The notes beneath the pieces are model-generated. The model was given only the letters and a program-made list of their open reading frames with translations. It was not told the DNA's origin and searched no databases. From Escherichia phage vB_EcoM_KAW1E185, in the sequence record NC_054922.1: a stretch of 64,000 bases of DNA; one strand, given 5' to 3'. Below, piece after piece: positions 3,104 to 64,000 of the stretch (positions within the stretch are counted from its first letter, which is position 1; the number at the start of each line of letters is the position of its first letter). A program made the translations under genes and the position numbers.

Positions 3104-4303
3104 TTTTGTAATAATGTCAAACTGTTCTTTAAAGCAGAAGCTTGAATCTTGATGCTGATACAAAAATTCATATGCTTTTTCACGCTCACGGTCATAAAGA
3201 GCTCGGTCAGATGACAGTTCTTTAATACGTTCAAATGTTGATTCCATATCATTTTCATCAAACCAAATGATACCGCTATCATGCGAGGTCAAAGGAGTAT
3301 TATCAACACGGAATTTTAAATTTTCGCCAGTAGATTTCCAAAATACCGGAATTGTTCCACATGCACCAAGCTCGAGATGAGTATATTCTAAAGAGCGCTG
3401 TAGATATTTTTTATCCAACTTACTCAACTGATAACCAAATCCGGATTTACTCATACGTTCAAGCATTTCGTTATTTACATAACGATCGAGAATTTGCGTT
3501 GGTAAATTAGGAGCAATTTTAATTTGGTCTACTTGATGAAGACGATAATACTCGTATGGAATTCCTTTTTCTTTAATAGGAATGAACGCTGGAGAACGTT
3601 CCAGACCTTCCATAATAGTACTTAGTCCTGCAGGTTTAAGATGTTTTTCATGAAAATCAAACATCTGATAAAAACCTTTCCATGTAGTCGTACGACCAAT
3701 CCAACGGTTGATATTCATGTTAATTTCAGAAACATCTTTCCAGTAGGTTGACCGAACCTTCGCAATATCCATAGGAGGCTGAAAGTTATATACTGTCGGT
3801 GCTTCTTCAATATCATCAAACAGAGAAACTGTTTCAGGATACCATTCTTTCATCAGAACTTTATTAAAATCACCATTATCAGAATGGCTAAAAATAACAT
3901 CAGCTCGACGAACAGTTTCTTCTAATCCCAAATTTCGGCGCAAAGAAAGAGAAGAATGGTCATGTTGATAAACTACAACACGAACAGAAGGTTTAATGTT
4001 ATCAATAATTTTTTTATAGTTATTAATAGTGTCTTCTTCAACCGAAGTAGCAGGAACTGAATTGATAATTAGAATATCACAATCATTTACCAGCTTAAGT
4101 GTTTTATCGTATTCTTTTGCCAATAAAACCGGAATTGAAAATGATTTATAATCATGTGCACAGTTACGAGTAAATGATTTATCTTTAGCATAAACCAAAG
4201 TTACTTCATGACCATTTTTAATAAACCAATCACGTTGCTCGAGCGAGAATTTTGTTACACCACAACCTTCAAGACCTCGAGCCATAAAAATACATACTTT
4301 CAT
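3101..4303 (-). CDS. a-gt: DNA alpha-glucosyltransferase
   Basis: 400 aa, same length as T4 a-gt; position between 47 and 55. Confidence 0.85.
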   Translation of the reverse strand: MKVCIFMARGLEGCGVTKFSLEQRDWFIKNGHEVTLVYAKDKSFTRNCAHDYKSFSIPVLLAKEYDKTLKLVNDCDILIINSVPATSVEEDTINNYKKIIDNIKPSVRVVVYQHDHSSLSLRRNLGLEETVRRADVIFSHSDNGDFNKVLMKEWYPETVSLFDDIEEAPTVYNFQPPMDIAKVRSTYWKDVSEINMNINRWIGRTTTWKGFYQMFDFHEKHLKPAGLSTIMEGLERSPAFIPIKEKGIPYEYYRLHQVDQIKIAPNLPTQILDRYVNNEMLERMSKSGFGYQLSKLDKKYLQRSLEYTHLELGACGTIPVFWKSTGENLKFRVDNTPLTSHDSGIIWFDENDMESTFERIKELSSDRALYDREREKAYEFLYQHQDSSFCFKEQFDIITK

Positions 4304-4340
4304 TTAATATCCTCATTGTTTTGGTTTATTTTACCAAAAA

Positions 4341-8638: not shown

Positions 8639-9109
8639 TTAATCATGTTTCCACACCCCATCGGTATTTGACCAAAGTCGCTGATTATCTGATCCTCGCC
8701 ACAGCTTTTTAGTCGGAAGATTTTTCTCATACTTCCCATCAATAATAACATCAACATATTTAAGCATTTCTAGTTGTTTAATATCTTCAAACTTATATCC
8801 TGTCCACAACCAAATGCTTTTATTGGGATAAAGATTTTTTACTGTTTGAACAATGCAATGAATAACATCTTGGTTATCAGGATAGAGAGGGTCACCTCCG
8901 GTTATAGTTAATCCTTCTATATAATCATTATTCAAACATTCAATTAATTGTTCTAGTGTTTCACCAGTGAATGGAATACCATTTCTAGCATTCCATGTTG
9001 ATTTATTATAACACCCTTCGCATTTATGCAAACAACCTGTAACGAAAAGAACGACCCTGCATCCAGGGCCATTCACAAAATCGCAAGGATAAAATCTATC
9101 ATAATTCAT
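8639..9109 (-). CDS. nrdG: Anaerobic ribonucleotide reductase activating protein (radical SAM)
   Basis: 156 aa; Cys cluster CLHKCEGCYN; upstream of nrdD. Confidence 0.9.
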   Translation of the reverse strand: MNYDRFYPCDFVNGPGCRVVLFVTGCLHKCEGCYNKSTWNARNGIPFTGETLEQLIECLNNDYIEGLTITGGDPLYPDNQDVIHCIVQTVKNLYPNKSIWLWTGYKFEDIKQLEMLKYVDVIIDGKYEKNLPTKKLWRGSDNQRLWSNTDGVWKHD

Positions 9110-10923
9110 TGGTGTTTAACCCTATGCATGATTTCTTTATTTTTACCGAGATTAAATCCGCGTTCGTTCGGATTTCCCAAATAACCACATGTTCTTCTTA
9201 TTGTGTTCATCTTTTTAGGGTCAGTTTCTCCACAAATAGAACAAACAAATCCGTTTTCAGTAGGAGTCATTTCATGGGTACTTCCACACGTAAAACATTT
9301 ATCTACTGGCATATTAACACCAAAATAATCTAAATGTTGTGCAGCATAATCCCATACGGCCTCAAGACCTTTTAAGTTATTTTTCATATCAGGAAGTTCA
9401 ACATAAGAAATGTGGCCGCCTGTCGCAATGAAATGATATGGTGCTTCGCGAGAAATCTTTTCAAACGGAGTAATATTTTCTTCTACTGAAACATGGAAAC
9501 TGTTAGTGTACCAACCTTTATCGGTAACATCCTTTACACTTCCATATTTTTCGGTATCGAGTTTACAGAAGCGATAACAAAGGTTTTCAGCAGGAGTAGA
9601 ATACAAGCTAAAAGCAAAACCGGTTATTTCAGTCCACTGTTTAAGATGAGCATTCATTTTAGTTAAAATTTCTCGTCCAATATCACGACCGACAAGAATA
9701 TTCAATTCGTGAATACCAATGTATCCCAAAGACACTGAACTTCTACCGTTTTTAAATAACTCAATTATGTCGTCATCAGGTTTAAGACGAACCCCGAATG
9801 CACCTTCTTGGTAAAGAATAGGAGCAACAGTAGCTTTAACTCCTTTTAAGGAACTAATTCTACACATCAAAGCTTCAAAACATAAATCCATTCGTTCATT
9901 GAATAATTCAACAAATTTCTGTTCATTGAATTGTGTTCCAATATAAGAATCTAACGCAATGCGAGGAAGATTCAGTGTTACAACACCAAGATTATTACGT
10001 CCATCAAGAATTTCATTACCAGTCGAATCTTTCCATACGCTCAAGAAGCTGCGGCAACCCATTGGAGAAACAGGAATAGATGAACCAGTGATAGCTTTAT
10101 TGTTCTTAGCTGAAATAATATCAGGATACATCCTTTTGCTTGCACACTCTAGAGCAAGCTGTTTAATATCATAGTTCGGATCGTCTTTATAAAGATTAAC
10201 ACCTTCTTCAACAAACATAACAAGCTTAGGGAAAATAGGAGTTATCCCATCACGACCAAGACCTTTAATACGATTTTTCAGAATTGCTTTCTGAATCATT
10301 CGTTCAGTCCAGTCAGTTCCCGTACCAAATGTAATTGTTACAAAAGGAGTCTGTCCGTTTGAACTAAAGAGAGTGTTTACTTCATATTCGTAAGCTTGAA
10401 ATGCATCGTATACGTCTTTTTCTGTTTTAGATTGAGCATAATTCAACGCATCAGCGATTTGCCATTTTTCTGCATCCTCAATATGTTTTGCATAGGTGCG
10501 TTTAACATAAGGAGAAAGTACTTTATCTACATTCGCAAAAGTCGTTCCGCCGTATTGGTGAGAAGCAACCTGTGCAGTAATTTGTGCCATAATTGCAGTA
10601 GCAACGCCAATTGATTTAGGAGTTTCAATCTGTGCATTACCAAGCTTAAATCCGTTCTCAAGCATTCCTTTTAAATCTACTAAACAACAATTAGTAAATG
10701 GAAGAGCAGGGGAATAATCAATATCGTGGAAATGGATAATTCCGCTTTCATGCGCTTTCATAATAAAAGACGGGACCATATTTTTGGCAATGTGTTTAGA
10801 CACAATACCAGCCATAAGGTCCCGTTGAGTTGGAAAAACACGAGAATCTTTATTAGCATTCTCGTTTAAAAGGTCTTTATTAGTTTTATGAATCAATCCT
10901 TCAATTTCTTTTTCAATTGTCAT
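9106..10923 (-). CDS. nrdD: Anaerobic ribonucleoside-triphosphate reductase (glycyl radical enzyme), uninterrupted
   Basis: 605 aa; C-terminal RRTCGYLG glycyl-radical motif and CxxC pairs. Confidence 0.95.
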   Translation of the reverse strand: MTIEKEIEGLIHKTNKDLLNENANKDSRVFPTQRDLMAGIVSKHIAKNMVPSFIMKAHESGIIHFHDIDYSPALPFTNCCLVDLKGMLENGFKLGNAQIETPKSIGVATAIMAQITAQVASHQYGGTTFANVDKVLSPYVKRTYAKHIEDAEKWQIADALNYAQSKTEKDVYDAFQAYEYEVNTLFSSNGQTPFVTITFGTGTDWTERMIQKAILKNRIKGLGRDGITPIFPKLVMFVEEGVNLYKDDPNYDIKQLALECASKRMYPDIISAKNNKAITGSSIPVSPMGCRSFLSVWKDSTGNEILDGRNNLGVVTLNLPRIALDSYIGTQFNEQKFVELFNERMDLCFEALMCRISSLKGVKATVAPILYQEGAFGVRLKPDDDIIELFKNGRSSVSLGYIGIHELNILVGRDIGREILTKMNAHLKQWTEITGFAFSLYSTPAENLCYRFCKLDTEKYGSVKDVTDKGWYTNSFHVSVEENITPFEKISREAPYHFIATGGHISYVELPDMKNNLKGLEAVWDYAAQHLDYFGVNMPVDKCFTCGSTHEMTPTENGFVCSICGETDPKKMNTIRRTCGYLGNPNERGFNLGKNKEIMHRVKHQ

Positions 10924-13628: not shown

Positions 13629-14551
13629 TTCAATACCCCAATAGCATTACGTAAACCATTTGCTTTGGCGGTTAAAGCCTTAAGAACTTTAGTATGCTCT
13701 TCAATTTGTTTTTCAACTTCAATCAAACGAGCATTGAGATATTCGCGTTCTTCTTTCATAGTATCATTTCCATGATTGGATTTTGGTGTAGGTTTAAATT
13801 CACTAGGGTCCTTTAATTTAATAACAAATTTAGTTTCAAACAGTGAAAGACCATAATTCGTATTATCATCAAAGGATTTGACTACATCCATATCAGATAA
13901 TAACACGCGCAAATTATAAGCCAAAGAACTAATAGTTTCATTGTGTTTATTAGCTTCGCGTGGTTTCATATACGGAAGATTTTTATATATCTCATGCGGA
14001 GCGCAAACGATAATTGACAATTCAAATTGTCCATTCTGGGACGATGGAATGAATTTAGCCGTAACCCAGTCTTTTACATTCACATTAATAGTACGGTTAT
14101 CACCATGACAAAACAGTCTACGAGAATGCTTAAAAAGCATATTCACGTTATTATTGAATTCGTGTGAAAATTCACTAGCAAATTTTTCTTTACTATCTTT
14201 AGAAAACCATTCTTCTAAATAAGTTCTTTTCACGTCGTTAATAATATTAAATGTAACAACACTAGCATTTGATACATTAGTCTTAATGTAGCTTGGATAC
14301 ATAAATTTTTTAACATTATTAACAGCTATCACAGAAGATAATAATCGGGAACGTTTGAACCACTCGAGCAAAGAACCAAGAGAATGTGAATACGCATTTT
14401 GTGTATCTTTACAAATATGGTTTTCCCATCCAATATAGTCTAAAAAATCACGAAGAATATTATTGATTACTGCTCTGTGTCCTATCTGATAATTACGATG
14501 TTTAGTAATAAGACTGTCAAAATAATCAATATAATGTTTACGAGTTTTCAT
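13625..14551 (-). CDS. Paralog family member P1 (308 aa) with C-terminal coiled coil
   Basis: Shares internal LLEWF(K/R)..RLL motif and heptad-rich C-terminus with P2-P4. Confidence 0.6.
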   Translation of the reverse strand: MKTRKHYIDYFDSLITKHRNYQIGHRAVINNILRDFLDYIGWENHICKDTQNAYSHSLGSLLEWFKRSRLLSSVIAVNNVKKFMYPSYIKTNVSNASVVTFNIINDVKRTYLEEWFSKDSKEKFASEFSHEFNNNVNMLFKHSRRLFCHGDNRTINVNVKDWVTAKFIPSSQNGQFELSIIVCAPHEIYKNLPYMKPREANKHNETISSLAYNLRVLLSDMDVVKSFDDNTNYGLSLFETKFVIKLKDPSEFKPTPKSNHGNDTMKEEREYLNARLIEVEKQIEEHTKVLKALTAKANGLRNAIGVLK

Positions 14552-14605
14552 GTTCTTCTCACTTGGTTAATGATTTATACTCCGAGCCATCCTTGGCTTT
14601 AAATT

Positions 14606-15607
14606 TTACTTAATTAACTGTAAAGCCTGTTCTAAACGATCAAGACGATTAACAGATTCTTCCCAAATCCTTTTAGCCTGCTCATATTCTTTCTGCGCTT
14701 TATTAGAAATTTCTAGAACTTCTTTATAAGCTTTTTCTAATGCAATAACTTCTGGACGAATTTCTACCGGTTCAGGTGAATCATCAAGATTATCCATTAG
14801 TTCCTCAAGGGTAGTTTCTTCTTTAGGAGTATTCACAATTTCATCACATTTTTGTTGGTAAATTTCTTTATCAGTAGGTGAATAAGCACATTTCACTTCA
14901 CGAAGACTAACTACAATTTTATATCCTTCCCAACCGCATATATTTTTAAAAGGATATGTATGAATATTTTCTACTGTTTCCATACAAAGTAATGCGGTCT
15001 CTAATTGACGAGTTATAGTGCTAGCAATTGAGAAAAATTTATTAATATTCTTTTGGCTAGTTTCTGGTGTAAAAAATCCATAATTCACAAAAATAGCTAC
15101 TTTATTTTTATCAAGTTCATATTCTTTTATGATAATCATATCAGAAGCCAAAGGATGAATTTGACGATAATCGCCATAACATAATTTAGAAGCTGATTTT
15201 AAAATTTGCTTTTTGAAAAGTCTGAAATTACTGATCCAACGACGAGTAAAAATATTCTCAGGGTCTTCTTTATTATTAAGATGATAAGAATTAACATCAC
15301 CGAACCAATTATATCCTACTACATCTTTGGTTCGTTTAATTTCTTTCCCAAAATTACCAAGAATATCCCGATTAACCAAATATGAAAGAAGACGAGACTC
15401 TTTAAAGGTTTTCTTGATAACATCTTTATCTACACGGCTAGAAATTTTACGAATTTCATGAATAAATTTAGCAGAAGAAACAATACTTGCATCAACACTA
15501 TTGAGCCACTGATTGATAATAGAAAGAACGCTATTTTGGCCAAACATCGGTATAGCTTTATCATCAATAACTCTATTGAATGATTTGATATATTCGTTAC
15601 GAGTCAT
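14606..15607 (-). CDS. Paralog family member P2 (333 aa from MTRNEY) with C-terminal coiled coil
   Basis: RRWISNFRLFKKQILKSASKL motif; SD GAGGAG upstream of ATG 15607; ORF-track start at 15637 lies inside the promoter. Confidence 0.6.
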   Translation of the reverse strand: MTRNEYIKSFNRVIDDKAIPMFGQNSVLSIINQWLNSVDASIVSSAKFIHEIRKISSRVDKDVIKKTFKESRLLSYLVNRDILGNFGKEIKRTKDVVGYNWFGDVNSYHLNNKEDPENIFTRRWISNFRLFKKQILKSASKLCYGDYRQIHPLASDMIIIKEYELDKNKVAIFVNYGFFTPETSQKNINKFFSIASTITRQLETALLCMETVENIHTYPFKNICGWEGYKIVVSLREVKCAYSPTDKEIYQQKCDEIVNTPKEETTLEELMDNLDDSPEPVEIRPEVIALEKAYKEVLEISNKAQKEYEQAKRIWEESVNRLDRLEQALQLIK

Positions 15608-15635
15608 AATAATCTCCTCAGTAGAAAGTAAGAAC

Positions 15636-15670
15636 ATTATACCACATCCTTGTGGCGAAGTAAACTAGTT
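15636..15670 (-). promoter_or_regulatory. Early promoter upstream of P2
   Basis: Minus strand TTTACT - 17 nt - TATAAT. Confidence 0.6.
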
Positions 15671-16669
15671 TAGTGCATTTAGTGCGTTGTTCAATTTAGA
15701 ACGTTGCTTCGTGAGATTTTTTACTTTTTCTTGAGCTTTTTCTAGCATCTTTTCAGCTTCTAACACTTCATTAATTGCTTTAACGAGTTCATCATCTACT
15801 GCCTTGATAGACTTCTCAATCGCATCCGCGTGCCATTTTTCAACAGGTTTAAGACTCGGATTTTCAACAGGAAGAAAATTCACTTTATTGAATTTCCATG
15901 CATCATTATTACCTGAACTATACATCCAAAATTTAGGATCGTTTGATGAGTAATTAGTTTGGGGTTCAGGTTTTTTCTCTTGTGTAACTTCGTCCTTTCT
16001 CAAAAAATCATATTTAAATGAAACAATCATGTCAAGTTCATATGTTGTCGTATCTAATTTAAATCGTTCGAAATGCTGCGAAATCTTAGATTGAACAGCA
16101 GCAACAACATCCATATACTTAAATGCTTCTGTCAGCTGTGATTTAAGACATTCACAAATTGAAAGAGAATTTTTTGTATTAGGTTTAAAGCTAATTCGTG
16201 CAGTTCTATTATTTTCTTTTAATGGTCTTACTTCCATCTGAAGAGTATAACCATCAAATTTCAGATTCTTTAAGTTAATATCAGAGCCTTTTAATCGACT
16301 AGCAGTAGACAAAATTTGCTTTAATTGTTTACGAAATAGAGCAATAAATCTCCATTCAAGACGATAATGATTTGGATTAAAAAATCCTGTTGATAAATCA
16401 ACCTTACTCTGACCAACGCCTTGAACAAATAGAGGATTTTTATAATCAATAGTTTTACAGAAATCGGTGAGCTGCTCACGAGCAGTCATTTGTGTAATAT
16501 ATCCCGCTTTACTAAAATGACGTAACCATTCACTGCTATTCATATACTTAAAGTGAATGGAACTATTAACTCTATCAGGGTCTAAATTATTTTGGCACAA
16601 AAATGTCATAACATCACGAGTATAGCTGGCATTACGAACCATATCTTCAATTTGAGAACGAGTTTTCAT
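15665..16669 (-). CDS. Paralog family member P3 (334 aa) with C-terminal coiled coil
   Basis: RLEWRFIALFRKQLKQILSTASRL motif aligned with P2. Confidence 0.6.
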   Translation of the reverse strand: MKTRSQIEDMVRNASYTRDVMTFLCQNNLDPDRVNSSIHFKYMNSSEWLRHFSKAGYITQMTAREQLTDFCKTIDYKNPLFVQGVGQSKVDLSTGFFNPNHYRLEWRFIALFRKQLKQILSTASRLKGSDINLKNLKFDGYTLQMEVRPLKENNRTARISFKPNTKNSLSICECLKSQLTEAFKYMDVVAAVQSKISQHFERFKLDTTTYELDMIVSFKYDFLRKDEVTQEKKPEPQTNYSSNDPKFWMYSSGNNDAWKFNKVNFLPVENPSLKPVEKWHADAIEKSIKAVDDELVKAINEVLEAEKMLEKAQEKVKNLTKQRSKLNNALNALN

Positions 16670-16677
16670 GGTGTTCC

Positions 16678-17586
16678 TTAAGATTTAAGTAAATCAACAA
16701 TTTTAATTAACTTTTCACGCTCAGATTTAGCTTTACTACTCAATCCAGATAGTCTGAAAATTTCATCATCATATTGTTGAATAGAAATATTCAGCTCTTC
16801 AATTTGCTTATTAAAATAATCAATTTGCTCAGAATGTTTTTCGTTACTACGAACTGGTACAGGTTTTGTAGGCAATTTAGTTGAACTGGATTCATCCGGG
16901 CGATAAATTAAAATACAACTTGAACCAATTGGACATTTTGCACCAGATGAATATTCTAATGTTCCGGCTTCTTTTAAAACTTCAAAAGCTAAACAGAGAT
17001 GATGCCCCATATTAACATAATCTGTAGAGCGAGCTCTGATATAATAATCATCGCCCCGAATACTAAATTTAAAGCATTTAAGGTCTTCTGTATTATTGGT
17101 CTTAAAAATCATTTGTTTATCTAGACCTTTAGCTAATCGAGCGCCTAATGCTAATAATCGTCGTTGATTTTCCCACAAATCTGCGATCATTTGGTCAAAT
17201 GATAATTTCGGCATTAGTCGACCGTAAAGATCATAGCCTTTATTATAATTGCGAAGAATTTCACTTGCATTAATACGAGACAATGCTCCAATTTTATTAA
17301 GGGCTTTCATAATGCGATTAGATAAACCCATTCCAGACCCGTTTGTTCGCTGTAAATGTTTTTCTAATCCAAATCCAATATCAACTTTAAACTTATCTAA
17401 AATTTCTGCATGAACATCTCTGTCAATAACATTCAAATCCAAAGTTGGGTTAAATCTATGAAAAAATTTATCTGGCTCTCCACGACGAAGTACAGTCCAT
17501 TCATTCAATTTTTTATTAACTAAAGATTTAATTACTGCATTGACATTATTAATTACTACTGACATATTTTCCTCACTCAATTTCAA
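16678..17586 (-). CDS. Paralog family member P4 (302 aa) with C-terminal coiled coil
   Basis: DLWENQRRLLALGARLAKGL motif; heptad-rich C-terminus. Confidence 0.55.
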   Translation of the reverse strand: MKLSEENMSVVINNVNAVIKSLVNKKLNEWTVLRRGEPDKFFHRFNPTLDLNVIDRDVHAEILDKFKVDIGFGLEKHLQRTNGSGMGLSNRIMKALNKIGALSRINASEILRNYNKGYDLYGRLMPKLSFDQMIADLWENQRRLLALGARLAKGLDKQMIFKTNNTEDLKCFKFSIRGDDYYIRARSTDYVNMGHHLCLAFEVLKEAGTLEYSSGAKCPIGSSCILIYRPDESSSTKLPTKPVPVRSNEKHSEQIDYFNKQIEELNISIQQYDDEIFRLSGLSSKAKSEREKLIKIVDLLKS

Positions 17587-17980
17587 TTTTACTAAATACG
17601 CAGAATATGATGGAAAAGACTATATAAGCACCGCATACAGATTGAACTAATACCATTCCAAAGAACCAAACAATATTATCAAACAATGTCTGTTTTACGT
17701 CGAAAGGACGTAAACTTACAGTAATATTATCGCCTTTTTCTATTGATGAATACATCTCTGGGGAAATATATTCGCTAAATCTATAACCGTCTTTGAGTTC
17801 ATATACGGCAATAAACGATAAACTAGACCCCTTTCCTTGTGTTCCTGTAAAGGTATTAACTATAGTAACATCATAATCTTTATAATGCATATAATCATTA
17901 ATTGCGTAATAACCATATGCAATTACTATGCATAAACAACATATCAATAAATTCAATCTTTTAATTATCAACTGTTTCAT
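17573..17980 (-). CDS. Hypothetical membrane protein (135 aa; N- and C-terminal TM segments)
   Basis: Hydrophobic ends; 14-nt overlap with P4 start. Confidence 0.5.
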   Translation of the reverse strand: MKQLIIKRLNLLICCLCIVIAYGYYAINDYMHYKDYDVTIVNTFTGTQGKGSSLSFIAVYELKDGYRFSEYISPEMYSSIEKGDNITVSLRPFDVKQTLFDNIVWFFGMVLVQSVCGAYIVFSIIFCVFSKIEIE

Positions 17981-18035
17981 AATAATCTCAATTAAAAGGG
18001 CTTAGAACCATTATACCATCCTTGGTATAAAGCGG

Positions 18036-18563
18036 TTATGCGAGTACCGTCTTTAACCGTTCTTCAAATTTCCGAAGAGTGTTCTGGCGTTCAGCTCTTT
18101 GCTTTTTGTAAGTTTCAATACGCTCTGAAATGAGAGTGTATCGTTCATTTACTGATTCTTTCATAAAATCAGGAATTTCACGAGAAGCTTTAATCTCGTC
18201 AAATTTATCAATAACAGCTTGCTCTTCAGCAATTAAGTTATCATACATCAAAATATCTTTCTTGATGAACTCAATATCTTCTTGAGTTACACGAGATAAT
18301 TTAGATGCTTTATCCTTTTTGTACTGTTCGTTAGTATCACGAGACCAGTGTAATGTACGATTTTTATTCGTATTCTTGTAAATTTCTACAATACCAATCT
18401 CATCGATAATAACGATCCAATTCCAACGGGATTTGTAAATTTGTCCTCCATCAACCGTGATTTCACCACCGATTGAGACATCATTAAAGAACTTGCTTTG
18501 AGCTTCAGATTTAAATTTACCATCATTGTAGTTTACCAAGTTGAAAATATCTTTAGCATTCAT
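18036..18563 (-). CDS. Hypothetical protein (175 aa from MNAKDIF)
   Basis: SD GGAGGAA upstream of ATG 18563; ORF-track start 18623 lies in the promoter. Confidence 0.5.
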   Translation of the reverse strand: MNAKDIFNLVNYNDGKFKSEAQSKFFNDVSIGGEITVDGGQIYKSRWNWIVIIDEIGIVEIYKNTNKNRTLHWSRDTNEQYKKDKASKLSRVTQEDIEFIKKDILMYDNLIAEEQAVIDKFDEIKASREIPDFMKESVNERYTLISERIETYKKQRAERQNTLRKFEERLKTVLA

Positions 18564-18592
18564 TTTCTGTTCCTCCGTAGTTGATAGTTGTA

Positions 18593-18621
18593 TAATACCA
18601 CAGAGGAACAGTCTTGTAAAC
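18593..18621 (-). promoter_or_regulatory. Early promoter
   Basis: Minus strand GTTTACA - 17 nt - TATTAT then conserved ACAACTATC. Confidence 0.65.
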
Positions 18622-19996: not shown

Positions 19997-20053
19997 TTTA
20001 TTCTCCTTTGATTTGATAGGACTACTATAACATAGTCCTATCAGTTTGTATAC

Positions 20054-20292: not shown

Positions 20293-20321
20293 ATAATACC
20301 ATAAAGCTTTATGCTTGTAAA
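20293..20321 (-). promoter_or_regulatory. Early promoter
   Basis: Minus strand TTTACA - 17 nt - TATTAT then ACAACTATC. Confidence 0.65.
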
Positions 20322-20344
20322 CAGTTTTGTGAAAAAATTTTTGA

Positions 20345-20371
20345 AATAAAAAAGGGAGCCCGAAGGCTCCC
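20345..20371 (-). terminator. Intrinsic terminator after nucleotidyltransferase gene
   Basis: Minus strand GGGAGCC-UUCG-GGCUCCC followed by UUUUUUAUUU. Confidence 0.65.
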
Positions 20372-20373
20372 TA

Positions 20374-21387: not shown

Positions 21388-21845
21388 TCAGCCTTATATT
21401 CAATAACAGGACATACTTTAGCTTTACGAGCTTTTAAAAATTCAACGATAATCGATTTCTTGGGTTGAATAGGAGGTAAACCTTTATACGCCCTATCAAT
21501 ATTTTCTATGTGTAAAGCATAATCCTTTTTCCATTTATAATCTTTATATTTTTCATGCAAATGTGCAGGAATAACAAATGAACCGATAATAAGTAAAACA
21601 ACCAAAAGCGCAAGTATAAATGCTGATGGAAGAAGAGTCCATAAACTACCAAAAATAAGCCAACGTTGTAGGCTTTCTGCACAAATAATTGTTAGCCCTA
21701 CGAGTATAGCACATCCAAAAATAGAAACGAAAAATGTAGGAATGGCAATAGACCAAAAATATGCGCATAGTGTCTTAGGTCGTTGCCATTCATCGTTAAA
21801 CAATTTGAATAATTTATAGTGCCAAGAGTTTTCATTAATAATCAT
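21384..21845 (-). CDS. Hypothetical membrane protein (153 aa, ~3 TM)
   Basis: Three hydrophobic segments in the translation. Confidence 0.55.
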   Translation of the reverse strand: MIINENSWHYKLFKLFNDEWQRPKTLCAYFWSIAIPTFFVSIFGCAILVGLTIICAESLQRWLIFGSLWTLLPSAFILALLVVLLIIGSFVIPAHLHEKYKDYKWKKDYALHIENIDRAYKGLPPIQPKKSIIVEFLKARKAKVCPVIEYKAE

Positions 21846-21847
21846 AA

Positions 21848-22369
21848 TTATCCTTTCATTGAAGGCGTAACAGTTGTTAAATACTTAATCATAGCTTCAG
21901 CTTCTGATTTTGATAATGAAATTTCTCCATTGTTTTGACGAATAGAAATAAAATCCGGATGACGGTCACCACCAGCTTTTAAAACACACATATAAGTATC
22001 AACTTCATCTTCAATATTTGAAATGATTGAAGCAGTTCCACATGAATGCGGTTTTTGATAAATCAATGCAGCTTTTCTTCCGCCATTTGACTGTTCATAA
22101 ACTTTTAATACATCAAACAAATCACTTCTTTTATCAATAGCTAAAATGTTATTTTCATCTTCAATGTTAAATCCTTCGGATACTTCATAAAGTGTCACCC
22201 ATAAATCGCCAATATCAATAACAGCGTTCACTTTTCCATGACTTTCAAGAGCATGACAAATTTTCTTGATTTCGTCATAACTCATTTTAATAATATCATC
22301 TCCTTGAATAAGAAAGATGTCATTTTTAAATTCAACACGAATTAAACCACTTCCACTTGAAATAAACAT
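21848..22369 (-). CDS. Hypothetical protein (173 aa), paralog of 22376-22921
   Basis: Shared GFNIE(D/S)E and C-terminal YL..V.P.M with the neighbour. Confidence 0.5.
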   Translation of the reverse strand: MFISSGSGLIRVEFKNDIFLIQGDDIIKMSYDEIKKICHALESHGKVNAVIDIGDLWVTLYEVSEGFNIEDENNILAIDKRSDLFDVLKVYEQSNGGRKAALIYQKPHSCGTASIISNIEDEVDTYMCVLKAGGDRHPDFISIRQNNGEISLSKSEAEAMIKYLTTVTPSMKG

Positions 22370-27221: not shown

Positions 27222-27759
27222 TTACTATTTCCAAAAGTTTATTATTTTTAAGGTAATTAGCCTTTTCTAGGACTTCAGAAGCATATTTAGAACCAGCTTT
27301 AACATTCCATCCCGAATTATAAGAGGATATTGCTTTTCTTATATCGCCCTTATGTATATTTAACCAATAAGAAAGTTCAATGTACGCCCATGAAGCTGAA
27401 TTGGATCGTTTATTCAACATTCTTTTTATTTCAGCATCGGTCATATTATAACCAAGTTCCTTAACTCTTGCTCGCATAGTAGGCAAATAATTTTGGAACA
27501 TTCCATAGGCGTGATGCTTTGGTTTAGATTTTAAATTAACTCCGCCAGAGCTTTCTTGCCATAAAATGGCTGCCATTATATGACCTAATCCGCTCTTGTG
27601 GATATTTTTATGTGTTTTATATTTTCCATCCTTAGAAAATTGTTCCCCGAATTGATACGCGTAACGCATGTTATCGAGTTGGACATTACTGAAAGTATGC
27701 TCGGAGCTATGTGCCATCATTGAAATGGCCAATAGACCAGCGAGTAGTGCTTTTCTCAT
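27214..27759 (-). CDS. Secreted lytic-transglycosylase-like (SLT domain) protein, 181 aa
   Basis: Signal peptide MRKALLAGLLAISMMAHS; motifs WQESSGG, YGMFQ, SSYNSG. Confidence 0.55.
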   Translation of the reverse strand: MRKALLAGLLAISMMAHSSEHTFSNVQLDNMRYAYQFGEQFSKDGKYKTHKNIHKSGLGHIMAAILWQESSGGVNLKSKPKHHAYGMFQNYLPTMRARVKELGYNMTDAEIKRMLNKRSNSASWAYIELSYWLNIHKGDIRKAISSYNSGWNVKAGSKYASEVLEKANYLKNNKLLEIVND

Positions 27760-28255: not shown

Positions 28256-28284
28256 ATTATACCACAGTCAAGAGGAAAAGTAAA
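28256..28284 (-). promoter_or_regulatory. Early promoter upstream of regB
   Basis: Minus strand TTTACT - 17 nt - TATAAT. Confidence 0.6.
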
Positions 28285-28287
28285 CAG

Positions 28288-34391: not shown

Positions 34392-34679
34392 AGTATTTCC
34401 TTAGGTTAATTAAGATTTAAAATCCATGAGAGTATTATACTCCGGATAGTTTGTAAACTATTTCAACATCGCCTTTTGCTGCTTTATAACCTTCAGCCCA
34501 AGATATAACCGAGTTTTTATCTGAAGATTCAAATTCTGGCATTGGGCTTTCGCCAATGTTCACACAATATGTTTCTTCATTTTCGTCAAACCAAATAATT
34601 AAAGTAGTCATTTATTTCTCCGTTTCTGTATTTGTTTTGATAAGTCTATAATAACACCGTCCTTGGTGTTTGTACACAA

Positions 34680-34955
34680 TTATTTCATATTATTGAAATA
34701 TTCTTCTGCGATTTCATCGTTATCATGGTAAACTTTAGAAGACAGTTTAACATAACCTTCTGCCGTGAACATATTAATCACAACCTTTACAGTATACCAC
34801 TGACCATCTTCATTACCCATTACTGCGTAAGTTTCAAACATCGGATGATCAGGACCGATAACTTTAATATCATTCACTGTACGACCAAAATCTTCTGAAA
34901 CACATTTCATAAAGAAGTTGAACAGTTCGCCGTAATTATCCATTTCATTCTCCAA
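34680..34955 (-). CDS. Hypothetical acidic protein (91 aa)
   Basis: ORF track; downstream of early promoter. Confidence 0.5.
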   Translation of the reverse strand: MENEMDNYGELFNFFMKCVSEDFGRTVNDIKVIGPDHPMFETYAVMGNEDGQWYTVKVVINMFTAEGYVKLSSKVYHDNDEIAEEYFNNMK

Positions 34956-48782: not shown

Positions 48783-51700
48783 CAGTAAAAGCACCTTCAG
48801 TCACTAGTCTCAGAATTTCCAAGTTATCCGCAAATCAGGTGCAAGTACGCTGGGATGACGTTGGTGCTAATTTCTACTATTTTGTAGAAATCGCTGAGAC
48901 AAAAACAGACTCGGGGGAAAAACTCCCGAGTAATCAATATCGTTGGATTAATTTAGGATATACTGCAAATAACAGCTTCTTTTTTGATGATGCTGATCCA
49001 TTAACAACATACATTATTAGAGTAGCCACAGCTGCGCAAGATTTTGAGCAGTCTGATTGGATTTATACCGAAGAGTTTGAAACTTTTGCTACAAATGCTT
49101 ATACATTTCAAAACATGATTGAAATGCAATTAGCCAATAAATTCATTCAGGAAAAATTTACTCTTAATAATTCTGATTATGTTAATTTTAATAATGACAC
49201 TATAATGGCTGCATTGATGAATGAATCGTTTCAATTCAGCCCATCATATGTTGATGTTTCATCAATAAGTAATTTTATTATTGGTGAAAATGAGTATCAT
49301 GAAATACAAGGTTCTATTCAGCAAGTATGTAAGGATATTAACCGCGTTTATTTGATGGAATCAGAAGGGATTCTATATCTTTTTGAGCGTTATCAACCTA
49401 TAGTTAAAGTATCTAATGATAAAGGACAAACCTGGAAAGCTGTGAAGCTCTTCAATGACCGTGTAGGATATCCTTTATCTAAGACAGTATATTACCAATC
49501 TGCGAACACTACATACGTTCTAGGATACGACAAGATTTTCTATGGCCGCAAATCTACTGATGTTAGATGGTCAGCTGATGATGTCAGATTTAGTTCTCAG
49601 GATATAACATTTGCTAAACTTGGCGACCAATTACATCTAGGATTTGATGTAGAAATTTTTGCCACTTACGCGACTTTGCCAGCGAATGTATACCGCATTG
49701 CAGAAGCTATTACTTGCACCGATGATTACATTTACGTTGTCGCCAGAGACAAAGTTAGATACATAAAAACGAGTAATGCACCTATAGATTCTGATCCATT
49801 ATCTCCAACATATTCGGAAAGACTTTTTGAACCTGATACCATGACTATAACCGGAAATCCTAAAGCAGTATGCTATAAAATGGATTCTATCGGTGATAAA
49901 GTTTTTGCTCTTATTATTGGTGAAGTTGAAACATTAAATGCTAATCCTAGAACATCAAAAATAATTGATTCCGCTGATAAAGGAATATATGTTTTAAATC
50001 ATGACGAAAAAACATGGAAAAGAGTTTTTGGTAATACTGAAGAAGAAAGAAGACGTATTCAACCCGGATATGCGAATATGTCAACTGACGGTAAATTAGT
50101 TTCTCTGTCTTCGAGTAATTTTAAATTTTTAAGTGATAATGTTGTTAATGACCCTGAAACTGTGGTGAAATATCAGTTAATCGGTGCTGTTAAATATGAA
50201 TTTCCTCGTGAATGGTTAGCTGATAAGCATTATCATATGATGGCATTTATAGCGGATGAAAAATCTGATTGGGAAACTTTTACGCCTCAGCCAATGAAAT
50301 ACTACGCAGAACCGTTCTTTAACTGGTCTAAAAAATCTAACACACGTTGTTGGATAAACAACTCTGATAGAGCTGTAGTAGTTTATGCTGATTTAAAATA
50401 CACCAAAGTTATAGAAAATATTCCGGAAACATCACCAGATAGATTAGTTCATGAATACTGGGATGATGGTGATTGCACTATAGTAATGCCAAATGTTAAA
50501 TTCACTGGATTTAAAAAATATGCGTCTGGGATGCTTTTCTATAAAGCCTCCGGCGAAATAATTTCTTACTATGATTTTAACTATCGTGTGAGAGATACAG
50601 TAGAAATTATTTGGAAGCCAACTGAAGTATTTTTAAAAGCATTTTTACAAAACCAAGAGCATGAGACTCCTTGGTCACCAGAAGAAGAGCGTGGATTAGC
50701 TGACCCTGATTTAAGACCATTAATTGGCACAATGATGCCTGATTCTTATTTGTTACAGGATTCGAATTTTGAAGCATTTTGCGAAGCATATATTCAATAT
50801 CTTTCTGATGGATACGGAACTCAGTATAACAATTTACGAAATTTAATTCGTAACCAATATCCACGAGAAGAGCATGCATGGGAATATTTGTGGTCAGAGA
50901 TATATAAAAGAAACATTTATTTAAATGCTGATAAACGTGATGCTGTTGCGAGATTCTTTGAATCGCGTAGCTATGATTTTTATTCTACTAAAGGAATTGA
51001 AGCATCATACAAGTTTCTTTTTAAAGTTCTTTATAATGAAGAAGTTGAAATTGAAATTGAATCTGGGGCTGGTACTGAATATGACATAATCGTTCAATCT
51101 GATTCTTTGACTGAAGATTTAGTAGGACAAACGATTTATACGGCAACAGGAAGATGTAATGTTACTTATATAGAAAGAAGCTATTCTAATGGTAAATTGC
51201 AATGGACCGTAACTATTCATAATCTTTTAGGACGATTAATTGCTGGTCAAGAAGTTAAAGCAGAAAGACTCCCTAGTTTTGAAGGCGAAATTATTCGTGG
51301 GGTTAAAGGAAAGGATTTGCTTCAAAACAATATAGACTATATTAATAGAAGTAGATCATACTATGTAATGAAAATTAAATCCAATTTACCTTCTTCTCGT
51401 TGGAAATCTGACGTTATTCGTTTTGTTCATCCAGTAGGATTTGGATTTATAGCAATTACTCTTTTAACTATGTTTATTAATGTTGGTTTAACTCTTAAAC
51501 ATACAGAGACTATAATTAATAAATACAAAAACTATAAATGGGATTCTGGATTGCCTACTGAATATGCTGATAGAGTAGCTAAATTGACTCCAACTGGTGA
51601 AATTGAGCATGATTCAGTAACAGGCGAAGCAATTTATGAGCCTGGCCCAATGGCTGGTGTAGAATACCCTCTTCCTGATGACTATAATGCTGAAAATAAC

Positions 51701-52937: not shown

Positions 52938-53804
52938 ATGTTCATTCAAGAACCAAAGAAATTGATTGATACCGGCGAAATTGGTAACGCTTCTACTGGT
53001 GATATCTTATTCGACGGTGGTAATAAAATTAATAGTGATTTTAACGCAATTTATAATGCGTTTGGCGATCAGCGTAAAATGGCAGTAGCAAATGGCACTG
53101 GAGCAGATGGTCAAATTATCCATGCTACTGGATATTATCAAAAACACTCTATTACAGAGTACGCAACTCCAGTGAAAGTTGGCACTAGACATGATATTGA
53201 TACCTCTACTGTAGGTGTTAAAGTTATCATTGAAAGAGGCGAACTCGGCGACTGTGTTGAATTTATTAACTCAAATGGATCAATATCAGTTACTAATCCT
53301 TTAACAATTCAAGCTATTGATTCAATTAAAGGTGTTTCGGGTAATTTAGTAGTAACTAGCCCATATAGTAAAGTTACTTTACGCTGTATTTCATCTGATA
53401 ATTCTACTTCGGTTTGGAATTATTCTATTGAAAGTATGTTTGGACAAAAGGAATCACCAGCTGAAGGTACATGGAATATTTCTACATCTGGATCAGTTGA
53501 CATTCCATTATTTCATCGCACTGAATACAATATGGCTAAATTGCTAGTTACGTGCCAATCGGTAGATGGAAGAAAAATTAAAACAGCAGAAATAAATATT
53601 CTTGTGGATACTGTTAATTCAGAGGTAATTTCTTCTGAATATGCTGTCATGCGAGTTGGGAATGAAACCGAAGAAGACGAAATCGCTAATATTGCATTTA
53701 GTATTAAAGAAAACTATGTAACGGCGACTATAAGTTCTTCAACTGTCGGTATGAGAGCAGCAGTTAAAGTTATCGCTACGCAGAAAATCGGGGTGGCTCA
53801 ATAA
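52938..53804 (+). CDS. 9: Baseplate protein gp9 (long tail fibre socket)
   Basis: 288 aa, same as T4 gp9. Confidence 0.95.
   Translation: MFIQEPKKLIDTGEIGNASTGDILFDGGNKINSDFNAIYNAFGDQRKMAVANGTGADGQIIHATGYYQKHSITEYATPVKVGTRHDIDTSTVGVKVIIERGELGDCVEFINSNGSISVTNPLTIQAIDSIKGVSGNLVVTSPYSKVTLRCISSDNSTSVWNYSIESMFGQKESPAEGTWNISTSGSVDIPLFHRTEYNMAKLLVTCQSVDGRKIKTAEINILVDTVNSEVISSEYAVMRVGNETEEDEIANIAFSIKENYVTATISSSTVGMRAAVKVIATQKIGVAQ

Positions 53805-61085: not shown

Positions 61086-64000
<2,915 letters not shown>

Follow-up and report, generated by a model that had tools for sequence, protein, structure and literature searches.

A hairpin with an invariant GGA loop in promoter spacers of T-even phages, a candidate site for host CsrA on read-through mRNA

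The window analysed here is a stretch of 64,000 nucleotides (nt) from Escherichia phage vB_EcoM_KAW1E185 (NC_054922.1), which aligns to phage T4 at about 33.5-98.3 kb and, between its positions 13.5 and 19.5 kb, shares 95-97.5% identity with T2/T4-type coliphages (Tequatrovirus). T4 is a reference for phage gene regulation, yet most genes of its hyperplastic regions, and their controls, are uncharacterised. The finding centres on the nrdC.3-nrdC.8 block, transcribed on the minus strand. An initial annotation had pointed to a recurring 10-nt motif, CCAAGGATGG and close variants, ahead of -10-like hexamers. This was confirmed at all four sites, as was their placement just upstream of genes, 39-51 nt 5' of the start codons of nrdC.3, nrdC.4, nrdC.7 and an open reading frame (ORF) of 58 amino acids (Table 1). 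The motif also exceeds chance: the exact form CCAAGGAYGG occurs 3 times in the window against 0.06 expected, a count reached in none of 100 shuffles, while allowing one mismatch gave 5 against 2.8 expected, which is not significant. What the initial annotation had not noticed is that the motif forms the apex of an inverted repeat. Hairpins of the type C-ANGGAN-G with at least 4 base pairs (bp) number 4 in the window (0.71 expected; 4 of 500 shuffles reached 4), all of them intergenic and on the transcribed strand, and the four hairpins of the sites appear in the minimum-free-energy folds of their intergenic gaps.

Table 1. Motif copies, hairpins, promoter elements and related features (window positions unless T4 is named)
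Feature	Coordinates	Strand	Description
Site 1 motif	14587-14596	minus	CCAAGGATGG, then ctcggag, then TATAAA; upstream of nrdC.3
Hairpin 1	14585-14598	minus	AGCC-AAGGAT-GGCT, -5.8 kcal/mol; 11 nt past nrdC.4 stop, 41 nt before nrdC.3 ATG
Site 1 -10-like	14574-14579	minus	TATAAA; neither GTTTAC nor MotA box upstream
Site 2 motif	15642-15655	minus	CCACAAGGATGTGG, TATAAT directly after; upstream of nrdC.4
Hairpin 2	15642-15655	minus	CCAC-AAGGAT-GTGG, -7.2 kcal/mol; fills promoter spacer
Site 2 -35	15660-15665	minus	GTTTAC; putative early promoter 5' of nrdC.4
Site 2 -10	15636-15641	minus	TATAAT; putative nrdC.4 early promoter, predicted +1 near 15629, 3' of hairpin
Site 3 motif	18016-18025	minus	CCAAGGATGG, TATAAT directly after; upstream of nrdC.7
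Hairpin 3	18011-18030	minus	TTATACC-AAGGAT-GGTATAA, -7.2 kcal/mol; 5' arm over MotA box, 3' arm over -10
Site 3 MotA box	18028-18033	minus	GCTTTA; 12 nt 5' of -10
Site 3 -10	18010-18015	minus	TATAAT; PnrdC.7
Site 4 motif	34657-34666	minus	CCAAGGACGG, then tgt, then TATTAT; upstream of 58-amino-acid ORF
Hairpin 4	34653-34670	minus	AACACC-AAGGAC-GGTGTT, -7.3 kcal/mol; edge of gene replacement relative to T4 e.7
Site 4 -35-like	34672-34677	minus	GTGTAC, one mismatch to GTTTAC; 5' of 58-amino-acid ORF 34435-34611
Site 4 -10	34648-34653	minus	TATTAT; TGt before hexamer
T4 hairpins	T4 2433-2450, 49893-49906, 50948-50965, 53333-53352
Anti-Shine-Dalgarno spacer	18592-18621	minus	with nrdC.8 ribosome-binding site
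Anti-Shine-Dalgarno spacer	28256-28285	minus	upstream of regB
Anti-Shine-Dalgarno spacers	T4 123093, 136336
Points of difference from T4	4294-4319, 9089-9109, 10385-10388, 21388-22351

Other sources of a repeat were considered and rejected. Mini-ORFs starting at the ATG within the motif would have 2, 7 and 9 codons, and site 4 reads ACG, so that no such frame is conserved. Tandem paralogy of the nrdC genes does not account for it either, as the nrdC.3-nrdC.11 proteins show no mutual blastp similarity at E < 0.01; a Pfam search of the nrdC proteins matched DUF7235 in nrdC.5 only. Rfam gave no meaningful match in 14300-18300 at E-values up to 10.

The sites had been thought to lack the GTTTACA -35 element of the other early promoters and hence to form, perhaps, a promoter class of their own. 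Neither idea survived a reading of the flanks: site 2 carries GTTTAC, site 4 GTGTAC and site 3 a MotA box, only site 1 being without an upstream element, and the sites fall into two known T4 prereplicative classes, early and middle. Site 2 can be read as GTTTAC-N18-TATAAT, or as TTTACT-N17-TATAAT with an extended -10 TGn (tgG), which is the layout of the other early promoters in the window, and the elements of site 4 have the same spacing (GTGTAC-N18-TATTAT). By consensus match, 15636-15665 and 34648-34677 are thus predicted sigma-70 early promoters. At site 3, the upstream context aaccGCTTTA keeps the core GCTTTA, with C for T just before it; deviations from the MotA box (a/t)(a/t)(a/t)TGCTTtA near -30 are tolerated (PMC2988021). 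The spacer between GCTTTA and TATAAT, taccaaggatgg, is 12 nt long, and the MotA class allows 12 ± 1 bp. The whole site matches T4 PnrdC.7 base for base. In the published list of MotA-dependent middle promoters, the mapped start of this promoter is T4 53325 (PMC2988021 Table 1); it falls exactly 7 nt after the -10, which by homology corresponds to window position 18003, an A. Judged by this match, 18010-18033 is the putative MotA-dependent middle promoter PnrdC.7. The comparison with MotA boxes that the initial annotation had proposed was therefore rewarding for the separate GCTTTA at site 3, but not for CCAAGGATGG itself. The hairpin overlapping PnrdC.7 in T4 goes without mention in the promoter review (PMC2988021), and the T4 GenBank records contain no promoter annotation.

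Site 1 is the exception, in that its TATAAA has no recognisable partner upstream; TATAAATC at this site matches the T4 late-promoter motif at 7 of 8 positions. Upstream of nrdC.3 in Mosigvirus, however, the same hairpin sits in an intact GTTTAC-N18-TATAAT. Dhakavirus has a hairpin-GGAG-TATAAT cassette with GTTTAC-N18-TATAAT upstream of nrdC.4, and the Mosigvirus nrdC.3 cassette is of the same form. Because these relatives retain an intact promoter in like cassettes, 14574-14598 is probably a decayed early promoter that kept its hairpin.

We then compared the hairpins among relatives, namely T4, IMG/VR contigs, Mosigvirus Shf125875, Dhakavirus JS98, Klebsiella Jiaodavirus pKp20, Gaprivervirus TH57 and the Salmonella S16-like phages CGG4-1 and STP4-a (Gelderlandvirus-type). 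Protein-based retrieval from IMG/VR contributed 5 loci only, and a first broad pattern scan returned mostly chance matches. The resulting alignment holds 17 distinct hairpin sequences from six Tevenvirinae genera, in which C8, A9, G11, G12, A13 and G15 are invariant. The apex has the form C[A(A/U)GGAN]G; its loop is AAGGAU or AAGGAC except in the Salmonella phages, which have AUGGAA. The stems, of 4-8 bp, differ from one another (AGCC, CCAC, TACC, CACC, ACCC, AACC, ATCC, TTCC with a G-U pair, TATC and ACATCC), while preserving their pairing: 96.5% of stem cells in the alignment pair, compared to 61% after shuffling, 4 of the 5 stem pairs show changes on both sides, and the covariation score is 0.849, versus 0.185 for shuffled sequences and at most 0.18 when the partners are slid. 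Hairpin 1, for example, is identical in T4 and the window (AGCC/GGCT), and its Mosigvirus nrdC.3 counterpart, AACC-AAGGAT-GGTT, differs by a compensatory A-U/G-C change; hairpin 3 has the variants ACCC/GGGT in Mosigvirus and TATC/GATA in one contig (L150).

Contrasts made without selecting for stems agree. All 4 intergenic occurrences of CAAGGAYG in T4 have a stem of at least 4 bp, versus 0 of 8 coding occurrences. A scan of the collection that fixed only GTTTAC, CAAGGAYG and TATAAT recovered stems of 4-6 bp in T4-like contigs and identified T4-like phages, and of 1-3 bp in most other matches, with one sequence (L135/L137) reaching 5 via G-U pairs. When, in one metagenome scan, the flanks of site 3 were fixed and the hairpin left free, the loop was intact in all 13 T4-like matches, which comprised three already known forms only; the remaining matches were unrelated.

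Other copies of the loop were also seen. At ~27621-27640 on the minus strand (T4 62133-62152), a 7-bp hairpin, ATTTTCT-AAGGAT-GGAAAAT, carries the same loop on a U-G closing pair; it lies within the vs.1 coding sequence, ~120 nt past the start, and may be a chance occurrence or a further member of the family. Downstream of alt, the AUGGAA-hairpin promoter of the Gelderlandvirus-type phages shows 1 change in ~60 nt between STP4-a (L223, 2016-2100) and CGG4-1 (L079); the flanking coding sequence diverges by ~10% between the two.

Covarying stems under an invariant apex indicate that selection acts on the fold, and thus point to a folded single strand with a loop that is read by some factor. We place this at the level of RNA because the arms covary, because the few wobble pairs, when read on the sense strand, are of the G-U type (e.g., CUUCC/GGAGG), and because the hairpin has outlived a decayed promoter. 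An element of the DNA itself, either an operator or a promoter class with CCAAGGATGG in place of the -35 (the main idea of the initial annotation), would account for the presence of the motif within promoter spacers in nearly every instance. Yet 3 of the 4 sites possess a canonical -35 or MotA element, the arms covary and offer no fixed half-site sequence, on the other strand each G-U pair would become an A-C mismatch, and the hairpin persists at T4 nrdC.3 despite the decay of its promoter. Moreover, anything from 0 to 8 nt separates the motif or loop from the -10, depending on site and genus, a spread that a fixed, position-specific contact with RNA polymerase would not allow. We consider a DNA-level role very improbable. 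Of the suggested "protein or RNA operator", then, what stands is the direction, as folded RNA with a loop to be read.

The position of the hairpins indicates on which RNA they would be found. Each follows a stop codon by 5-12 nt, on the sense strand, and precedes the next gene. Located within the promoter spacer or over the -10, it lies 5' of the local transcription start; it should therefore be absent from locally initiated RNA and present only in read-through mRNA. Early promoters are located further upstream on the minus strand (18592-18621, 20024-20053 and 20293-20322), and no terminator was predicted on that strand between 20353 and 13000, so that read-through RNA should carry the hairpins. 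We infer that the element would act in such mRNA.

Could the hairpins themselves end transcription? As intrinsic terminators they were rejected, having a weak fold and no U tract, and none is predicted on the sense strand at the hairpins. At 20353-20372 on the minus strand, AGGGAGCCTTCGGGCTCCCT and the T run after it form a strong intrinsic terminator that has a UUCG tetraloop (-15.8 kcal/mol). It stands immediately upstream of the early promoter at 20322 and sets the limit of the transcription unit in which the hairpin sites lie.

The stop-promoter-stem-loop-Shine-Dalgarno-ATG layout of the window sites, in a hyperplastic region, is that of published phage cassettes. PeSLs consist of a stem-loop between -35 and -10 or over the -10, with a stop codon 5' and a Shine-Dalgarno sequence and ATG 3' (PMC2839356), and versions with a MotA box are called PmSLs (PMC4122927); both cluster in hyperplastic regions and have been linked to the shuffling of genes as modules (Arbiol et al. 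2010; Comeau et al. 2014). As in those cases, cassettes of the window type are reused at unlinked loci and stand at gene-replacement boundaries. One 30-bp cassette occurs upstream of T4 rIIA.1 (2.4 kb), of T4 nrdC.4 (50.9 kb) and of cef in Klebsiella phage pKp20, another is present at two loci of one Mosigvirus-like contig, and site 4 coincides with the very point at which homology to T4 is lost. What sets the window type apart is how it is defined. The published PeSLs are recognised by their stems (G-tract/C-tract in RB49; AGNA...TCNT just 5' of the promoter in PST/T4), with termination and recombination as proposed roles, whereas the hairpins described here share an invariant C[ANGGAN]G loop on weak, variable stems that are not terminator-like. 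In addition, PmSLs have been reported in Vibrio phage nt-1 and not in T-even coliphages, and site 3 is of the MotA type in a T-even phage. A text search of the literature consulted did not find the GGA-hairpin sequence for T4 (figures listing the PST/T4 PeSLs lay outside the search). From these comparisons, the window hairpins appear to be a subfamily of PeSL/PmSL cassettes with a conserved loop of the kind bound by CsrA.

A plain PeSL/PmSL stem-loop with no specific reader has to be weighed: it would attenuate or insulate read-through, serve as a recombination patch, or both, and its loops would be alike by shared ancestry. The architecture, PmSL version included, the reuse of cassettes (T4 2.4/50.9 kb and cef; the two loci of the Mosigvirus-like contig) and the location of site 4, at the boundary of the e.7 replacement with early promoters flanking it, are all in keeping with this explanation. 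Neutral drift, however, would have eroded the loop first, and it is the loop and its closing pair that are invariant in six genera while the stems compensate. The conserved core of 10 nt is short for homologous exchange, and on the sense strand the four hairpins do not resemble terminators, their -5 to -8 kcal/mol comparing with -15.8 kcal/mol for the UUCG terminator. We regard a stem-loop without a reader as unlikely, albeit to be reckoned with.

Several neighbouring promoters add to the picture of cassettes. At 34407-34680, T4 e.7 is replaced by the unrelated 58-amino-acid ORF (34435-34611, minus strand), with early promoters on both flanks, as in a textbook cassette exchange. The T4 e.7 promoter (T4 70304-70359, minus strand) is itself a GTTTAC-N18-TATTAT with a 7-bp hairpin, ATAGGCT/AGCCTAT, over its -10, where the T4 record has an N. 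Of the early promoters at 20293-20322 and 20024-20053 (minus strand), one has a perfect palindrome, CATAAAGCTTTATG, in its spacer and the other a 10-bp hairpin, GATAGGACTA/TAGTCCTATC, over its -10; these too look like PeSL-type cassettes.

Given a loop that seems to be read, we asked what might read it, and found a close match to the high-affinity binding sites of the host RNA regulator CsrA. The CsrA consensus from in vitro selection of ligands (SELEX) is RUACARGGAUGU, with ACA and GGA invariant and GU nearly so, and most ligands have stems of at most 4 bp and a loop of six nucleotides that AC/GU pairing closes; in structures determined by nuclear magnetic resonance the loop is an ANGGAN hexaloop whose A and GGA are contacted (PMC7652899). 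In E. coli, AuGGAug within a short stem-loop is over-represented among the peaks from crosslinking and immunoprecipitation sequencing (PMC5694010). The phage sites expose GGA in a hairpin loop, and A9, G11, G12 and A13 together with the C8-G15 pair, present in 17 of 17 sequences, fit the ANGGAN hexaloop with C-G closure. The sequence ACAAGGAUGU of site 2, shared by the nrdC.4/rIIA.1/cef cassette, agrees with the SELEX core ACARGGAUGU at 10 of 10 positions. The phage stems, at 4-8 bp, are in several cases longer than in the typical ligand. A single CsrA dimer is able to span two sites separated by 10-63 nt, and the glgC leader has one site in a hairpin and another at the Shine-Dalgarno sequence (PMC7652899). 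In 11 of 13 phage sites the Shine-Dalgarno sequence holds a second GGA, 29-41 nt downstream and so inside the 10-63 nt range. A tblastn search for a phage-made CsrA in T4 and the window yielded nothing below E 0.5, which makes the host protein the candidate. Compared to known CsrA/RsmA hairpins, among them those of the glgC leader and the CsrB repeats, the phage elements are alike in holding GGA in an A(A/U)GGAN six-nucleotide loop on a C-G closing pair, with stems that are short if not always as short; they differ in belonging to a lytic genome, in lying inside promoter DNA, in being confined to read-through RNA, and in reading mostly CCA. By match to the consensus, we judge binding of CsrA to these hairpins to be possible, and put it forward tentatively.

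Invariance of the loop demands some reader, and this could be another one: ribosomal protein S1, a phage RNA-binding protein, or RNase E acting at the AU-rich UAUAAU to process polycistronic early mRNA. SELEX against S1 has also selected GGA and ACA loop motifs (discussed in PMC1702504), and the AU-rich -10 sequence comes right after the hairpin. On the other hand, the T4 reviews consulted name no T4 protein of such specificity, no CsrA homologue turned up in T4 or the window as a phage-made substitute, and the agreement with CsrA extends beyond GGA to loop size, closing pair and, in part, stem length. A reader other than CsrA thus strikes us as improbable.

The T4 endoribonuclease RegB, to which the loop would present GGAU, was rejected as scarcely credible. 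RegB does cleave early mRNAs between genes, at GGAG and on rare occasions at GGAU, and one artificial substrate had most of GGAG in a loop (PMC3014915, PMC1702504). But when Durand et al. used primer extension to test all 30 intergenic GGAU sequences of T4, they saw cleavage at just two, those of 55.2 and motB.2 (PMC1702504); the sites here are without the required A-rich 3' sequence (GGAGRAYARAA), and several have GGAC, the poorest substrate.

Sequestration of the Shine-Dalgarno sequence in cis at the GGA-hairpin sites was likewise considered and set aside: the predicted effect is modest (e.g., unpaired 0.28 versus 0.42, and 0.31 versus 0.74) and cannot stand in for a trans-acting factor.

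With CsrA as the candidate reader, the explanation that we consider plausible, with confidence a little short of even, is an ordinary T-even promoter with a spacer that has taken the form of a short hairpin, the apex of which would be read by host CsrA on read-through RNA. A CsrA dimer would dock on the hairpin and bridge to the GGA of the downstream Shine-Dalgarno sequence, damping the translation, or altering the stability, of the downstream cistron on read-through transcripts; promoter-initiated transcripts, having no hairpin, would escape this effect; and promoter plus hairpin would together act as a PeSL/PmSL-type cassette reused at unlinked loci. The broader proposition is conceivable, if somewhat doubtful: that T-even phages of enterobacteria carry conserved, high-affinity CsrA hairpins in the intercistronic leaders of a few early genes (among them nrdC.3-nrdC.7, rIIA.1, cef and a gene next to alt), only on read-through RNA, so as to couple translation or stability to the Csr state of the host or to titrate CsrA locally. 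What the sequences show is the identity of the promoters, the covariation of the hairpins, their placement confined to read-through RNA and the agreement with the CsrA consensus; action at the RNA level, binding by CsrA and the translational outcome are what we infer.

A number of observations weigh against this proposal. With regard to the fold, the covariation alignment was partly chosen for stems, although two unbiased contrasts agree with it; the G-U pairs that favour folding of RNA over DNA occupy a few cells only; and site 1 shows A-C at the outermost aligned position. The early assignment of sites 2 and 4 relies on consensus rather than on a published promoter list. As for CsrA, sites outside the nrdC.4/rIIA.1/cef cassette read CCAAGGAYGG, in which a paired A-U to C-G swap removes the ACA that is invariant in SELEX; GGA is missing from the Shine-Dalgarno sequences of window sites 1 and 3; T4 Shine-Dalgarno sequences commonly contain GGA anyway, which leaves the two-site geometry a weak argument; each genome has only 4-5 sites; our literature search found no experiment linking CsrA to T4 RNA; and another factor could read the loop.

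If CsrA does bind, the hairpins would tie a classic lytic phage directly to the main post-transcriptional regulator of its host, and the phage would be hijacking the Csr system in cis instead of encoding a CsrA of its own. The interplay of phages and CsrA has been raised only recently, with phage-encoded CsrA homologues (PMC11879866) and with the unusual stability of CsrB during T4 infection (PMC9697503). PeSL-type cassettes would also gain a function beyond termination and recombination. Even without CsrA, the idea of a new promoter class is corrected and a testable hairpin family across six genera is defined.

Signals that act only on read-through RNA have precedents in T4, where read-through-specific translational silencing is known for e, soc and 49 (PMC3014915). 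As in the silencing of e, soc, 49 and I-TevI, the GGA hairpin is an element 5' of an internal promoter start that would act on upstream-initiated RNA only. The T4 silencing helices, however, pair with the ribosome-binding site in cis, whereas the GGA hairpin has no such pairing and would need a trans factor. Should the CsrA proposal hold, it would extend a design rule in which the promoter spacer is the place for signals that mark read-through as opposed to locally initiated RNA.

Some early-promoter spacers contain anti-Shine-Dalgarno arms, with CTGTTCCTC facing GAGGAACAG, CCTCTT facing AAGAGG, and CCCTC in two T4 copies (Table 1). These arms are predicted to bury the ribosome-binding site only in read-through RNA, where the unpaired probability is 0.00-0.10, versus 0.47-0.60 in promoter-initiated RNA. 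The T4 copies at 123093 and 136336 share one identical promoter cassette.

Finally, the window differs from T4 at several further points (Table 1): it is without the T4 segments bearing mobB, mobC and the nrdD I-TevII intron, and ~960 bp of unrelated sequence replaces mobD.

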